Shown here: positions 196-61,779 of the stretch, in pieces
How positions within the stretch are numbered: the stretch's first letter is position 1
How the letters are laid out: every line of letters begins with the position of its first letter
From: a virus
Virus record (IMG/VR): IMGVR_UViG_3300045974_000760
Location: 32,001 to 96,000 of that record
DNA: 64,000 nt
Reading direction: 5' to 3' (one strand)
Notes under the pieces: model-generated
Database searches by the model: none
What the model was told of the DNA's origin: nothing
The model's input: the letters and a program-made list of their open reading frames with translations, nothing else
Position numbers and translations under genes: made by a program

Positions 196-596
196 TCGGC
201 CTCCGCTGCCTGAACTGCCAACAGACGTACGCCCCTGGTACCGGAGCTACTGTACTTGGGGTCATGGTGTGTCCGAGCTGTGCAGTAGTTGCGGAACGTA
301 TTCTCGAGCGGGCTGAGGGCGAGCTGAAGATGCTCCTCACGCTGATGAAGGAGAAGGTCCGCCTGAGCCTCATCGAAGGCAAGCTGCAGTTCGGCCCCGG
401 GTCTGAGGAGCCGCCCAGCAAAGAGGACGTCCTCAAGGCCATCATCGAGCTACACGGGAGACAGAATGAGTCGCAAGGAAGCCAACGCCAACATCCTGCT
501 CGAGTACGAGACGAAGTGCGACACCCCGGACTGCCCGGGCAAGGGGAAGGCGTTGTCGAATCGTCTACCCACGGGCGCCCTTCTCTGCCTCGATTA
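192..596 (+). CDS. CxxC..CxxC zinc-finger protein (ends at TTA if TTA=stop)
   Basis: ATG 192, CLNC and CPSC motifs. In-frame TTA at 594-596; otherwise it reads through the whole 466-723 gene to 1154. Confidence 0.6.
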
Positions 597-2806: not shown

Positions 2807-3207
2807 GCAACGTCGCCTATCACTGCCCTGGTTGTATGTCCCCTGCGGTCGAAGTCAGCGCCCTTGTGAATGGCGCTGCCTCGTGCCGCACCTGCGGGTG
2901 GGAGGGGACACGTTCGGACGTCCTCTCCTACGAGTTCGAGCCCGGGCAGAACTCGCCGGAGGAGCAGGGGCTGAAGTTCATGCTCGGCATTCGCGACTTG
3001 TTCTCGACCATCGCCGGGCCCTTCGGTCAGCTCTACATCAAGTACGGCTTTCTCGATGTCGCCCAGCCACCCGCTGAGCTCAAGGTCAATGTCGTTCGCT
3101 ACCTTGGTAGTGCGGCGATTGCCATTGCGCGCAGTGCGGTTGAGACACGAGAGCAGCTCGAGCGCGAGCGGGTCAACAAGAGCCGAAAGAACATGGCACA
3201 AGCATGA
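2803..3207 (+). CDS. Zn-ribbon protein
   Basis: CPGC...CRTCGW; ATGA coupling. Confidence 0.7.
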   Translation: MSNVAYHCPGCMSPAVEVSALVNGAASCRTCGWEGTRSDVLSYEFEPGQNSPEEQGLKFMLGIRDLFSTIAGPFGQLYIKYGFLDVAQPPAELKVNVVRYLGSAAIAIARSAVETREQLERERVNKSRKNMAQA

Positions 3208-8296: not shown

Positions 8297-8577
8297 TGTG
8301 CTACTTCCTGCACATGCACCCTGACTACATCCGCGCGCTGCAGAAGAAGCGAACCTGGGAAGCTCTCGTGAGGCACCTGCGGGAGATCTACCTTCCGCAG
8401 CCGGGCTCGTCAGAGCCCCAAGAGCTCACCTCGGATGAGCTGCCCGGCAATCACAACCCCGTACCCCAAGACGTCCTGCTGGAAGTACTGAGCACACTGG
8501 AGACACATGCCTACGCCGAAGAACAAGAAGCGCACACCTTCCAAATGGTCCGGGCTCCCAAAGGACAAGGTTCCTGA
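8296..8577 (+). CDS. hypothetical protein
   Basis: Adjacent ORF; start may be ATG 8314. Confidence 0.55.
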   Translation: MCYFLHMHPDYIRALQKKRTWEALVRHLREIYLPQPGSSEPQELTSDELPGNHNPVPQDVLLEVLSTLETHAYAEEQEAHTFQMVRAPKGQGS

Positions 8578-8974
8578 AGACACACTTCAGACCGTTCTCG
8601 GGCTTCTGAAGCAACAGGCAGCGCGCATCGATGAGATTGGCACTGCGTTCAATCAGAACGCCGGCGCCTACTACGAGGGGTACCAGATGACGGAGATGTG
8701 GTCCGTCATCCAACGGCGCGTGCTCAGCGACATGTTGCGCGGCGAGGTCTACACCGTCGAGGTCGAGTACGCGCTGCCCCTGCGTCCGACAGACCTGCTG
8801 GACCAAGCGATGCACCCGTGTGTTGACTGGCAGAAGTACAAGGAGGACTACATCGCGATGATTGGGCTCATCGCAGCGCTCGATAACCTCAAGCACGTCT
8901 TCTACGGCTCGCAGGTGAAGTTGGCCACCGAAGCCGATTTGCGTGTGATTGAGTTCGGCGGGGATGTACCCTTA
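8507..8974 (+). CDS. hypothetical protein (ends at TTA)
   Basis: GGAG RBS; in-frame TTA 8972-8974 with an ATG 3 nt later. Confidence 0.6.
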
Positions 8975-8977
8975 GTC

Positions 8978-9160
8978 ATGGCCGCCCCCCTCACTCCCCC
9001 GGTTCGAGATGTACGTGGTCGCTTGCGCGAGCAGGCACAAGGCGGTCCTGCCCGCATCATCTGCCCCAACTGCAAAGGTGTGGCGGTTCCCATCGCCCCA
9101 GGTAGCACCGAGTACACCTGTACCACATGCGGCAACGGCTTTCGCTCAAAGCCGTTCTGA
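8978..9160 (+). CDS. small Zn-ribbon protein
   Basis: CPNC...CTTC; ATG just after TTA, preceded by a TACCCT -10-like hexamer. Confidence 0.55.
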   Translation: MAAPLTPPVRDVRGRLREQAQGGPARIICPNCKGVAVPIAPGSTEYTCTTCGNGFRSKPF

Positions 9161-27133: not shown

Positions 27134-27955
27134 ATGACGAAGGAGGAGCTGAAGTTTGGAGCTCCGCCAGCCAAAGCCGGGGCTCAATCCCCGGCTTTGA
27201 CGTATATGGCGGACAAGGCCTCACGCGCTAGCCCGAGCGCACGTACCGAACGTGAGCTGCAGATGTGGCACACGTGGAATGACAGCGGGCGAAAGCCCGA
27301 ACACCTCGAGCCCCTGCTCAAAGCCTACGAGCCCATCTTCTCTCAGAAGGTGCGGCAGTGGTCGGCTGGTGCAGCGGGCGTGAATCCCATGTTCATGCGC
27401 GCGCAGGTCGAGAAGCACTTCATCGACGCCGTGGGGAAGTTCGACCCCAGCCGTGGCTATGCGCTTGCGACTCACGTCGACAAGCCGATGAACAAGGCAC
27501 AGAGGGCGCGCAACACGGTGCAAAACGCGGCCTACGTCTCCGAGGAGACAGCCCGCACTATCGCGCCCATCCAGAACGCCACCGCCGAGCTGCACGCAGA
27601 GCTCGGCCGAATGCCTACCCCGCAAGAGATTGCTACCAGGTCGGGGCTTGGTCTTCGCGTCATCAAGCGACATCAGCTCGAGATTCGCAAAGACGTCGCT
27701 GCCTCGGCGTACGAGAACGACCCCACCGAGAACCCGATGAATCGGGCTCACGATATCGCTCCCCTACTTCGGGAGCAGTTCCAGCAGCCCGGCTTCCAGC
27801 CTCACGTACTACACGTGTTTGACCACACGTTCGGGCTGAATGGAGCTCCGACAGACCTGAGCGGCGGGCAGCTCGCCAAGAAGCTCGGCGTCTCACCCTC
27901 GGCCATCTCTCAAGCGAAGAGCCTCATTCTCGCTGAGACAAAGAAGTACCTGTTA
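27134..27955 (+). CDS. RNA polymerase sigma factor, group-3-like (FliA/SigB/WhiG type), ends at TTA
   Basis: Region 2 AVGKFDPSRGYALATHV, region 3 LGRMPTPQEIA, region 4 LSGGQLAKKLGVSPSAISQ...KKYL followed by TTA. Confidence 0.8.
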
Positions 27956-28033
27956 TACCCACCCGCAGTACATCGAGGCCCGTCACTCATAGCGAGAGGC
28001 GGGCCTCTCTCATTTCCAAAGGCACAACAAGAC

Positions 28034-29020
28034 ATGGCTCACGAACTCGCAATCGACTCCCTCGGCGCGCAAATGTTGTACGCAGGTGAAACGCCTTGGC
28101 ATGGACTGGGCACGAAGATCGAGAAGCACGTCACCAGTCGCGAAGCGTTGGCAATCTGCCGCGCGGACTACGCAGTGAAGTGCGGGCAGCTCTTCACCTC
28201 GAAGTCGGTGCCCGTCAACGCACAGTACATCTACAGGGAGGACGCAGAGGGGGTGCAGACCATCCTGGGGCACCACGTTGGGATGGACTACACGCCGCTG
28301 CAGAACGTGGATGCATTCACGTGGTTTGACCCGTTCCTGGAGAGCGGGATGGCCGCTATCGAAGCGGCGGGCGTACTGCGTGATGGCGCACGTGTGTGGG
28401 TACTGGCTCGCATCGAAGGTGACCCGCTTGAGATCTTGCCGGGGGATGTGGTGGTGAAGCGCTTGCTGCTGAGCAACGACCACAGCGGCATGCAGGCGGC
28501 TCGAGTGGGGCTGACCCCGATTCGCACCATTTGTGCAAACACGCTTGCGATGGCGTACGCGGACAAGAGGTCCCAGCTCTTGCGTGTCAAGCACACGCGT
28601 AACATCAAGGACGCACTCGCGGTGGTGCGGGAGACCATTGACGTGGTGAACAACGAGTTCAAGGCCACGGCGGAGCAGTACCGCCGTCTCACCACGATGG
28701 GTGTGGTGGAGAAGGACATCGAGAAGTACGTGAAGCTGGTGTTCGCTCCCGGCACCGCGCCCGATGCACCGGATGAGCAGCTGGTGGGCAGCTCAGCGGG
28801 CAAGCGTGTGTGGGAGCAGATCAAGCCGCTGCTCGAGGTGGGGCGAGGTGCCTCCATCCCCGGAGTACGCGGTACGATGTGGTCTGCATTCAACGCAGTG
28901 GTTGAGTACGTTGACCACAGCCGTGGACGTAGCCGTGAGTCGCGCCTGGAGTCGCAGTGGTTCAAGGATGGCGCGGCCCTGACCTCCCGCGCGCTCAAGT
29001 TGGCGCTGCAGGCTGCCTGA
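28034..29020 (+). CDS. DUF932 (phage/plasmid-like) protein
   Basis: MAHEL...ETPWHGLG start; LSNDHSG...TPIRTICANTL; GTMWSAFNAVVEYVDH. Confidence 0.85.
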   Translation: MAHELAIDSLGAQMLYAGETPWHGLGTKIEKHVTSREALAICRADYAVKCGQLFTSKSVPVNAQYIYREDAEGVQTILGHHVGMDYTPLQNVDAFTWFDPFLESGMAAIEAAGVLRDGARVWVLARIEGDPLEILPGDVVVKRLLLSNDHSGMQAARVGLTPIRTICANTLAMAYADKRSQLLRVKHTRNIKDALAVVRETIDVVNNEFKATAEQYRRLTTMGVVEKDIEKYVKLVFAPGTAPDAPDEQLVGSSAGKRVWEQIKPLLEVGRGASIPGVRGTMWSAFNAVVEYVDHSRGRSRESRLESQWFKDGAALTSRALKLALQAA

Positions 29021-29618
29021 TGGCTAGCTGCGCGAGATAGCCCTCACACATCTCGCGCAGCACCTCCTCGCCGAAGCGATTCAGGGCGAGGTTCACCACG
29101 ACGCATACCAGTCGTGTGTTGTCTGGCGTGTACCCGCCTCCAGGGATGATTTGGTCGAGAGAGGGCGAGTACGGTTGGTGAAAGCGCTGGCCCGATTCAT
29201 TCACCTCGAAACGCAGTATGATGCCGGTCAGGGCGCAGCAACCAAGTTGCTCGTCGTACCTAGCGAGCAACCACTCCATATCAATAGTGAAGGGCAGCCC
29301 TTTGGCGGTGGCTCGGTCTCGCGCCGCAGTCAAGATAGCGCGTAGGCGCGAGTACGCCTCCTCGGACTGTGCGCGACGGCGGCGCAAATACTCCGTGCGG
29401 TACTTCTGGTACCTCGCGGCGTTCTCCGTTGGGTCGTACCTCTCTTTGCCCTTGTCTTTGTAGTAGTCCGGGTGCTTCTCGCGATAGCGCCCCGAGTAGC
29501 CCTTCATACATTCCTTACAGGTGCCTTGGATACCGTGCTTATTGCTGCTGTCCTTGTAGAACGCCGAGAAATCTTTGGTGATTTGGCACTTGGAGCATTT
29601 GCGCGTTGTAGTCGTCAC
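28995..29618 (-). CDS. HNH-like endonuclease with N-terminal Zn finger
   Basis: CSKC...CKEC; CALTG...SPSLDQI...GYTPDNTRLVCVVVN; solitary opposite-strand gene. Confidence 0.75.
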   Translation of the reverse strand: MTTTTRKCSKCQITKDFSAFYKDSSNKHGIQGTCKECMKGYSGRYREKHPDYYKDKGKERYDPTENAARYQKYRTEYLRRRRAQSEEAYSRLRAILTAARDRATAKGLPFTIDMEWLLARYDEQLGCCALTGIILRFEVNESGQRFHQPYSPSLDQIIPGGGYTPDNTRLVCVVVNLALNRFGEEVLREMCEGYLAQLAIRQPAAPT

Positions 29619-29704
29619 GTAGATAGGGTAGCAGGGCGTTGCGGTATGCACCAACACATGCGCAGTGCTCGCGTACGAGCGAGGAGGCAGGCACACTTCG
29701 AGGC

Positions 29705-29929
29705 ATGGCTGACGCTACTGCACGCAACCAACGCCTCGACTCCTTGAAAGAAAGTACTACCGCCTGGGCTGCACAAGAACGGGCAATCCGACAGAACACC
29801 GTTCTTCGCTGCAAGGCAATCCTCAAAGGTAGAACTGGAAGTGAGCGGCTGGCCTCCTCTCTGTCGGAGGCTACAGCCGCTGCTACCCAGGAAGAAATCG
29901 ACGCCTTCCTATCAATCGGTGGGGAGTAG
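29705..29929 (+). CDS. hypothetical protein
   Basis: ATG start; followed by TTTTCTTAGCCCC. Confidence 0.6.
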   Translation: MADATARNQRLDSLKESTTAWAAQERAIRQNTVLRCKAILKGRTGSERLASSLSEATAAATQEEIDAFLSIGGE

Positions 29930-29965: not shown

Positions 29966-30226
29966 ATGTTCCCGAACATCCAGTCCCCCCTGCAGAACAT
30001 CGAGCTTGATGAGCTCGACAAACTCCGCTCCGAGAACATTCATCTGCGGCTCACCTCCATCACTCTCCGCAAGCAGCAGCTGATGGCAGAGCTGGGGCGG
30101 CTCGGGCAGGAGGAGCTGACCGTGCACAAGGAGCTCTCCGACTTCATCGGGACCGTGCAACGCAAGTACAACGTGACGGATGAAGCGCTTGCCGACGCCC
30201 TTCAGAAGATGGGGCAGAACCAGTGA
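29966..30226 (+). CDS. coiled-coil hypothetical protein
   Basis: Heptad pattern. Confidence 0.6.
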   Translation: MFPNIQSPLQNIELDELDKLRSENIHLRLTSITLRKQQLMAELGRLGQEELTVHKELSDFIGTVQRKYNVTDEALADALQKMGQNQ

Positions 30227-31239
30227 ATACCTCTGGCCTTCTGAGCACCTACTCACGTCAGTCCGCAGTCCTCACCATCGATGTACCGCTGAGTGATTGG
30301 CAGACCGCAGAAGGGGTGCTTCTGTTTCACGCGCTCGAGGTATGGCGCTCGCGGGTTGGGGAGTGGGGGCCGTACGAAGAGGTGACTGCGCCGGGGTACA
30401 CGGCGGCCTCCTTCCCAGCAGCTGATGGTCTTGCCCCGGACGTTACGACTGGGCCTTCCATCTTGCTGCACGGCAAGTACCTCGAGCTCGAGGTGGACGA
30501 GACCCTCATCATCCGGACCGACTTCTCAGGGGCTGACCCCTACAACTACGCGACGGCGGCAACGGCCATCAACGCGCAGAGCAGGGGACGGTACCTCGCG
30601 TACGTGGCTCGCGGCATCCTCCATATCAACGGTGTCTCGGCAGGCTCGGCCGCATCGTTGAGGGTGGTGGGTGGAGAGGCTGCTCCGCTGCTGGGCCTGT
30701 CTCTTCTTAGCCCCGAGAATGCGGCGTACGGGCGGGAGCCGTGGACTGCTCTCACGACGGGCATCTCGCGCTACACGTTCGTGGACCGCAACAGTGAGGC
30801 GGGCTTCTACTACAAGACGCGCCTTCGCAACATCTTGACGGGTGCTGTGTCGGCGTTCGCGCCTGCCTTCATGCCCAAGGCGCCCTCGGGCTTGTCCGCC
30901 GACAACCGTGTGGTGGGGTACGTGCGGCTCGCGAGCTCGACGGGTGGGCCTGACGTCTCGCGACGTCTCGCGGTCCGAGTGGAGTTCCACCCCACGCTCA
31001 TCGAGGGCCACAACATCGCAGGCGGGGACATCGAGCTCTGCACAGATGGGACGGGCTACGCCGAGACGCTGCTGGTTCCAGGCACGCAGATTCAAGTTGC
31101 ACTGGGAGGGACCGAGCTCGTGAGGAGCCTGGTTGTACCTTCCACATCTTTCAACCTTCTCGACCCTGCGTACGGAACCGATGATGTCTTCCGAGTCCAG
31201 TCTAATCCGGAACGATACGCCTCCCCCCGGAGCCGATTA
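30223..31239 (+). CDS. beta-rich virion protein (ends at TTA)
   Basis: Fn3/Ig-like YTFVD...YYKTRL; in-frame TTA 31237-31239, after which the frame becomes non-protein-like and another frame takes over. Confidence 0.6.
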
Positions 31240-31249
31240 CCTGTGGATC

Positions 31250-31450
31250 TTGTGGACCACAACGGCGGGTATGCACACGTTCCACCACAAGTACAAAGTG
31301 GCGTACGTGCAGGGCAAACGCCTTCTGGACTACCTGCGCCCCTTGCGTGTGGAGAACTGGCAGCGCCGCAGGCCAGTGCGCGCCAATCGACAGCCGCTAC
31401 GCTTCGGGCAGCCAGTACCTGAGAAGAACCTGACCATCTACCTCCTCTGA
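31250..31450 (+). CDS. small basic protein
   Basis: Fills the gap to 31458; start is TTG 31250 or ATG 31271. Confidence 0.5.
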   Translation: MWTTTAGMHTFHHKYKVAYVQGKRLLDYLRPLRVENWQRRRPVRANRQPLRFGQPVPEKNLTIYLL

Positions 31451-61027: not shown

Positions 61028-61113
61028 GCCTCGTGTAGCTCAGTTGGTAGAGCGCGGGATGACATCCGAAAGGGGTCTGCCCGAGGTCGATGGTTCAAGC
61101 CCATCCACAGGCA
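61028..61113 (+). ncRNA. tRNA-like RNA lacking an anticodon loop
   Basis: Canonical D arm (TAGCTCAGTTGGTAGAGC) and T arm; anticodon arm replaced by an extended stem capped by GAAA. Confidence 0.65.
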
Positions 61114-61687: not shown

Positions 61688-61691
61688 CAAT

Positions 61692-61766
61692 GCGCGAGCG
61701 GCGAAACTGGCAAACGCACATGCCTTAGGAGCATGAACTCTAGGGGTTCGAGCCCCCTCTTGCGCA
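61692..61766 (+). tRNA. tRNA-Leu(UAG), short variable region
   Basis: CATGC-CTTAGGA-GCATG; Leu-type D arm GGCGAAACTGGCAAACGC. Confidence 0.8.
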
Positions 61767-61779
61767 TAGTTGTTTTCAC

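Follow-up and report, generated by a model that had tools for sequence, protein, structure and literature searches.

Does the open reading frame (ORF) at positions 27134-29020 of a large phage genome encode a single sigma-DUF932 protein, or two genes that are joined only by a TTA codon? The locus lies in a stretch of 64,000 nucleotides (nt), hereafter the window, which corresponds to bases 32001-96000 of a 143,216-bp viral contig with 61% G+C (G000; IMG/VR record IMGVR_UViG_3300045974_000760). G000 is a metagenomic assembly, classed as 'linear' in IMG/VR and about 77% complete. Under table 11 the ORF starts with an ATG at 27134 and stays open for 628 codons up to the TGA at 29018-29020, with no in-frame TAA, TAG or TGA at 27134-29018. 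The initial annotation had read it as two genes meeting at a TTA, and the comparisons presented here point the same way: we consider it very probable that the ORF consists of two separate genes, with translation of the sigma factor ending at the UUA at 27953-27955 and the DUF932 protein having a start of its own.

The two halves of the ORF and the junction between them

The first gene (27134-27955, plus strand) comprises 273 codons plus the terminating TTA, and its predicted product of 30.1 kDa is a sigma-70-type factor. Specifically, the sigma half matches phrog_351 ('RNA polymerase sigma factor'), and Pfam searches returned a helix-turn-helix (HTH) together with Sigma70_r3 at 25.1 bits, just below the cut-off of 25.3; in the relatives P0045 and P0104 the same domain scores 46.5 and 31.1 bits, respectively. 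A profile of the sigma family, compared with the solved SigA, SigF, FliA and RpoS chains, aligns over everything between region 2 and the C-terminal end of region 4 (E from 1e-15 to 1e-6), so that regions 2, 3 and 4 follow one another as in other sigma-70 factors and the protein closes with the C-terminal HTH of region 4. The protein had been described as a complete group-3-like sigma factor. It is complete, and group-3-like in size and layout, but it misses the cut-offs of the group 3 subfamilies (TIGR02479, 24.5 bits versus 189.6; TIGR02980, 18.8 versus 234) and belongs to a separate phage family of 1034 detected members.

These 1034 relatives, typically of 245-290 amino acids (aa), were retrieved by an exhaustive HMMER search with the sigma half, and their alignments reach query residue 272-273 and their own last residue. 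In the window, this point corresponds to the codons AAG AAG TAC CTG (KKYL, residues 270-273), which are followed by TTA as in-frame codon 274. The KKYL column is the exact end of the protein in 23/34 aligned relatives, and 29/34 end within 6 residues of it; in the two relatives with the longest tails, P0043 and P0104, a TTA stands at the KKYL column. Where the sigma 3' end is complete (about 30 loci), the first stop-like codon appears at the expected family end, and in about 27 loci beyond the four described below (L088, L089, L091 and L092) it is a TGA, a TAA or a TAG.

The four loci allow the sigma end to be compared codon by codon. L088, a metagenome contig of 929 nt with 90.5% aa identity to the window in its sigma part, reads CTG TAA TAC, where the window reads CTG TTA TAC. 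L092, part of a 68-kb syntenic contig of 53.7% G+C with a sigma factor 47% identical, also has a TAA, placed 0 codons from the TTA of the window, and its DUF932 gene starts 28 nt later in another frame. In L089 (56-57% identical) the sigma gene has a TTA at its end, and downstream of it lie a hairpin, a T-run, a GGAG motif and a DUF932 ATG in another frame. In L091 (about 36% identical) a TTA at 3160-3162 lies three codons past the sigma family end and the next gene encodes a KilA-N protein; the source annotates L091:2401-4587 as one 728-aa protein (P0104), in which sigma and KilA-N are joined only by that TTA. Since the nearest relative carries TAA and one further removed carries TTA, the two codons must have been interchanged at this site more than once.

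The second gene (28034-29020, plus strand; 328 codons plus TGA) opens with ATG GCT CAC GAA (MAHE) at 28034, and its predicted product is of 36.0 kDa. The C-terminal half of the ORF scores 151.2 bits with PF06067 (DUF932; cut-off 23) and 202.5 bits with TIGR03299 (cut-off 110.7), the latter match being full-length (profile positions 2-311 of 312). The domain search of both halves, which had been suggested as a check, yielded a sigma-70-type N-terminal half and a full-length DUF932/TIGR03299 C-terminal half. The alignments of DUF932 relatives begin at residue 1 of the MAHE protein; the sigma relatives thus end at the KKYL column and the DUF932 relatives start at the MAHE methionine, as expected of two genes.

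Separate orthologues of the DUF932 gene are present in L088, L089 and L092. The order sigma-then-DUF932 is conserved in all three, and in all three DUF932 is in a frame different from that of sigma; in L088 one extra C in the spacer puts it out of frame. The in-frame arrangement is peculiar to this genome. The differences between window and L088, counted by codon position, are 12/4/59 in the sigma gene and 36/23/63 in the DUF932 gene. We looked for a fusion conserved with its linker in relatives, the finding that would have spoken for one protein, and did not encounter it: no sigma-DUF932 fusion is present among the best 150 of the 1034 sigma matches, and the search for proteins of 345-1099 aa matching both halves returned only DUF932 proteins. 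Neither the conserved frame and linker nor the fused homologues that mark read-through or a natural fusion were found.

Between the two genes lies a spacer of 78 nt (27956-28033, plus strand). KKYL, TTA, spacer, AAAGG motif and MAHE start were all found at the positions that the initial annotation had given, and the spacer is intergenic, as it had suggested, rather than a protein linker: compared with L088 it carries a frame-breaking 1-nt indel and 4 substitutions, and the downstream frame is not conserved. At the same time it is about 94% identical to L088, a conservation above that of the flanking coding DNA, such as an RNA element, but not a linker, would be expected to show. The hairpin noted previously is a predicted stem-loop of 33 nt (27975-28007, plus strand) with the arms GAGGCCCG...CGGGCCTC; it is stable (-27.9 kcal/mol; z-score -3.1 versus shuffles) but was not called as an intrinsic terminator by a simple terminator scan, because its tail, UCUCAUUUCC, is T-poor. 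It is possibly a weak terminator or an RNA-stability element. At the same place in L089, the stem is followed by TTTTTCTTTT, a T-run. The Shine-Dalgarno-like AAAGG (28018-28022, plus strand) lies 11 nt before the DUF932 ATG; it is kept in L088, and GGAG stands in its stead in L089.

The sigma gene of L088 contains, in addition, an in-frame TAG (L088:291-293, equivalent to window 27797-27799, where the window has CAG, Gln, codon 222), at which the source annotation splits the gene. This TAG may be a suppressed amber rather than the mark of a broken gene; G000 has a tRNA with a CUA anticodon (L083:15393-15464).

TTA at other gene ends and inside genes

The sigma end is one of six positions at which TTA stands where homologues have standard stops (window 27953, 31237 and 8972; L089:4067 and L089:5409; L091:3160). 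The second one in the window (31237-31239, plus strand) ends a gene at 30223-31239, and the next ATG, at 31271, is in another frame. The orthologue in L092 (343 aa, ending with TAA) aligns through its residues 3-342 with residues 4-337 of the window protein and ends one residue before the TTA. We considered that this TTA might be a by-product of a frameshift at the CCCCCC run at 31223-31228, and dropped the idea since the L092 orthologue ends there.

The third TTA gene end (8972-8974, plus strand) divides the ORF 8507-9160 between a gene of 155 aa and a zinc-ribbon gene of 60 aa, the latter with its ATG at 8978. In L143 (55% identical), the TGA of the first gene comes five residues after the motif FGGDV, the window gene ending one residue after it, and the zinc-ribbon gene begins at the aligned methionine in another frame. 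L144 and L145 (95% identity) keep the TTA at this junction. At L089:5409, a gene ends with TTA within four codons of the TAG that the window has at 29927.

One TTA looked at first like a counter-example. At genome position 31079 (L082:15079-15081, 921 nt before the window) a TTA is followed by 25 coding-like codons, conserved in L142 (84% identity), as if it were a sense codon. These 25 codons run antisense to a convergent 142-aa gene that uses the same triplet, on the other strand, as its TAA, and all 3 codon changes with respect to L142 are synonymous in the convergent gene and non-synonymous in the TTA frame; the case for a sense TTA was ruled out on these grounds. The triplet shared by the two convergent genes (TTA on the plus strand, TAA on the minus strand) is kept at L142:3246-3248, in a relative 86% identical in DNA.

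Two further junctions have a similar layout. At window 594-596 a TTA occupies codon 144 of the ORF 165-1154, with an in-frame ATG 30 nt later, and it is kept at L142:4761-4763; this ORF is likely two genes. A 2128-codon ORF of G001, a relative with a complete genome of 185 kb, has TTA as codon 221 (32933) and, 12 nt further on, an in-frame ATG (G001:C1:32931-33593, minus strand); it probably comprises two genes, of 220 and 1,900 aa in that order. PHROGs returned nothing for the other TTA-flanked genes, and a search of the relatives' genomes for the gene at genome position 30314 gave a weak N-terminal match only.

If TTA is a stop, it should be missing from gene interiors. Among the 4,948 codons called in the syntenic contig L092 there are 0 TTA in frame, whereas the remaining two frames contain 94 and 27. 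From position-specific base use 38 would be expected (Poisson probability of zero about 3e-17), and more from the A/G ratios of other codon pairs. L092 is otherwise rich in A-ending codons, with 130 CTA versus 75 CTG, and with CAA, GAA and AAA making up 40-45% of their pairs. As the depletion affects frame 1 only, avoidance of a DNA motif is excluded. The only in-frame TTAs of L092 are confined to the tail of a single gene, ahead of AT-rich intergenic DNA and the ATG of the next gene.

In G001, 2 TTA were counted in 54,336 called codons, the next rarest codon being ATA with 23. G000 has 12 TTA in 40,337 codons, where about 100 would be expected from its TTG use and the A/G ratio of other pairs. 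Of the 12, two directly precede a TAG or TGA, another is 9 codons short of a TGA, and five are at junctions (window 594, 8972, 27953 and 31237; genome 31079); the remaining ones are in low-scoring ORFs in which another frame codes better. Hence, no TTA is found in a supported gene interior of G000. The last tenth of genes holds 8-16% of the ATA, AGA, TGT and CTA codons, which are evenly spread, versus 4/6 of the TTA codons. Gene-model totals with TTA or control codons as extra stops were uninformative, AGA gaining as much as TTA.

This pattern is confined to the nearer relatives. In those whose sigma identity is about 35% or lower, TTA occurs within large conserved genes (L099, L100, L105-L107, L121 and L129; 42-56% G+C). 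The two nearly complete genomes G004 (L146-L155; 52% G+C) and G005 (L156-L165; 56% G+C) contain 40 and 117 TTA, respectively, evenly spread (10% fall in the last tenth of genes), and in both cases the 28-32 tRNA genes include a tRNA-Leu(UAA). Among the tRNAs that the phages themselves encode, no tRNA-Leu(UAA) was found in G000 (8 tRNA genes) or G001 (4 tRNAs). The tRNAs of G000 include readers of AUA, GUA, CUA and ACA, in addition to the CUA-anticodon tRNA. The G+C content of the clade is 54-65%, and about ten TTA ends occur among roughly 170 genes in the 143-kb genome.

Probable termination at UUA and competing explanations

What allows UUA to end the sigma gene, as we see it, is that neither this phage nor its nearer relatives use it as a sense codon. 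According to the mechanism that we propose, the UUA at 27953-27955 would end sigma translation and release a 273-residue, 30-kDa factor; the following 78 nt would be an untranslated spacer with the stem-loop and the ribosome-binding site; and the 36-kDa DUF932 protein would be made by independent initiation at the AUG at 28034. Release at UUA would most likely be due to an RF2-type class-I factor accepting U at the second codon position, as proposed for organelles, and this factor would be the host's, because no phage release factor was found.

Some points weigh against this interpretation. No RF-1 domain, indicative of a release factor, was detected in G000 (about 77% complete) or in G001-G005. 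In G001, TTA is nearly absent even at gene ends, which fits an unassigned codon as well as a stop. Gene calls were taken from their sources for L089, L091, L092 and L142, and came from a simple self-trained caller elsewhere. Sequence comparison establishes the gene limits, the absence of UUA from gene interiors and its positional equivalence to stops, whereas the release mechanism is one that we infer. Finally, no standard stop follows the sigma TTA for 354 codons, so that any leakiness would give a fusion of 69.0 kDa; for the same reason, this junction is the clean test case for TTA as a stop that the initial annotation had seen in it.

An unlikely alternative is that UUA is unassigned rather than a true stop: no tRNA would read it, ribosomes would stall at it, and the chain would be freed by rescue or by peptidyl-tRNA drop-off and hydrolysis, still giving two proteins. 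The distribution of tRNA-Leu(UAA), which the TTA-using relatives carry and which was not found in the TTA-free phages, is compatible with this, as are the failure to find a phage release factor in G000-G005 and the nearly TTA-free G001, with only 2 candidate TTA ends. However, stalling on an intact mRNA usually leads to tagging by transfer-messenger RNA (tmRNA) and degradation, and tmRNA tagging would make an unassigned codon a poor way to end about ten genes. Moreover, at the sigma-gene end TTA interchanges with TAA in at least three diverged phages, and it stands there without a standard back-up stop behind it.

A code change imposed by the phage itself appears distinctly unlikely. Here, the host tRNA-Leu(UAA) would be removed or blocked, every UUA-containing host message would stall and the phage, with no UUA in its own genes, would use the codon as a terminator; early infection would give extended or fused products, and separate sigma and DUF932 proteins would follow after the switch. 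A comparison of gene content shows 34 G000 genes that match the TTA-free G001 but not the TTA-using G004 and G005, most of them in the 28-39 kb structural region. No candidate for the responsible factor emerged among these 34, the six non-structural genes being without a Pfam domain.

That the fusion is real, with UUA read as leucine to give a 628-residue sigma-DUF932 protein, either constitutively or conditionally as for bldA/TTA in Streptomyces, we hold to be very improbable. The two coding regions do share a frame in the window with no standard stop between them, and they stand in the same order in L088, L089 and L092; yet DUF932 changes frame in each of these three relatives, and a one-in-three chance of a shared frame suffices for this genome. 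Furthermore, the hairpin-forming spacer carries an indel, gene interiors are otherwise free of TTA, and neither the best 150 sigma matches nor the proteins of 345-1099 aa include a natural fusion. The idea that conditional reading of UUA might turn the sigma factor into a fusion protein thus received no support, the in-frame layout being a peculiarity of this one genome.

A sequencing or assembly error, or a recent private stop-loss (TAA to TTA) with no meaning for the code, is hardly credible: although the TTA of the window is one base away from the TAA of L088, and G000 was assembled from a metagenome, TTA recurs at this gene end in assemblies made independently from other samples (L089, L091), it is conserved at other junctions in L142, L144 and L145, and a private error cannot explain 0 TTA in the 4,948 codons of L092.

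Comparison with known systems, and other observations at the locus

The proposed termination at UUA in this phage can be set against several known systems. Stop-codon-recoded phages read TAG or TGA as an amino acid with the help of phage suppressor tRNAs. As in those phages, genes of G000 are mis-called under table 11 and the genome carries a CUA-anticodon tRNA; the direction of change is the opposite, from sense codon to terminator, so that table 11 fuses genes instead of splitting them. In Streptomyces, TTA occurs inside regulatory genes and is read as leucine by bldA; the two cases have in common a very rare TTA, a G+C-rich genome and a reading dependent on one tRNA, whereas the phage has TTA at gene ends and never within genes. 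Unassigned codons of G+C-rich bacteria such as Micrococcus luteus simply vanish from genes. The phage, too, has lost an A-ending codon from its genes, and no cognate tRNA was found in its genome, but its TTA does the work of a stop at ends with no other stop, and L092 is 54% G+C with abundant CTA, CAA and AAA. In programmed read-through, as for the A1 protein of Q-beta, two coding regions in one frame are likewise separated by one special codon, and the downstream frame and the extension are conserved; in the phage the frame is not.

The closest parallel comes from organelles. UUA is a stop in labyrinthulean (Thraustochytrium) mitochondria (NCBI table 23), UUA and UCA are stops in peDinoflagellate plastids, and UUA and UUG in the mitochondria of Marsupiomonadales and Pseudoscourfieldia (PMC12574857). 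The plastid case was presented as the first sense-to-stop change outside mitochondria, and the organelle cases have been tied to mutated RF1- and RF2-type factors (Ser204 of mtRF2a/pRF2, mtRF1a variants) (PMC12574857). Codon and signature are the same as in the phage, UUA being absent inside coding sequences and present only where homologues stop, and the evidence is of the same kind. The differences are that the phage is a virus of bacteria with a 143-kb genome, and that the organelle cases are associated with altered release factors.

In the searchable papers, sense-to-stop changes are described only for mitochondria and, since 2025, for plastids (PMC12574857, PMC6821328), and a full-text literature search found none in a phage or a bacterium. 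If our interpretation is right, a UUA-terminating clade of large soil and freshwater phages would extend such changes to bacterial viruses, and would imply either an undescribed state of the host translation apparatus or a phage mechanism that changes it. Table 11 would also be producing false fusions, namely the 628-aa sigma-DUF932 protein, the 728-aa sigma-KilA-N protein of L091 and the 2128-aa ORF of G001, as well as false C-terminal tails. The sigma/DUF932 junction separates the outcomes by size: 30.1 plus 36.0 kDa for two proteins, against 69.0 kDa for the fusion.

As to the wider context of the locus, blastn against a phage collection found nothing, and so did single-protein scans of viral and metagenome contigs with the sigma proteins; the diversity of the alignments A2 and A3 was too great for pattern searches. 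The DUF932 relative P0002 comes from a contig that has only DUF932 in common with the window phage. The genome-contig scan gave one match, a contig of an Anaerolineales metagenome-assembled genome with a 29%-identical sigma factor. We drew no inference about the host from it, this sigma being too distant and the contig possibly a mis-binned phage.

Downstream of the junction, a convergent 233-aa ORF (28995-29696, minus strand) with many Cys-x-x-Cys pairs extends over the final 26 nt of the DUF932 gene. Two tRNA genes of the window are unusual. The one with the anticodon UAG, which reads CUA (61691-61767), is 77 nt long with a short variable arm, unusual for a leucine tRNA, and its amino-acid identity may be doubtful; CTA is the commonest leucine-box codon in L092 (130/442). 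A tRNA-like gene at 61029-61113, adjoining tRNA-Tyr, scores 41 bits against the Rfam tRNA model, and ARAGORN finds in it no normal 7-nt anticodon loop; a similar odd tRNA adjoins tRNA-Tyr in G001 (G001:97360-97445).

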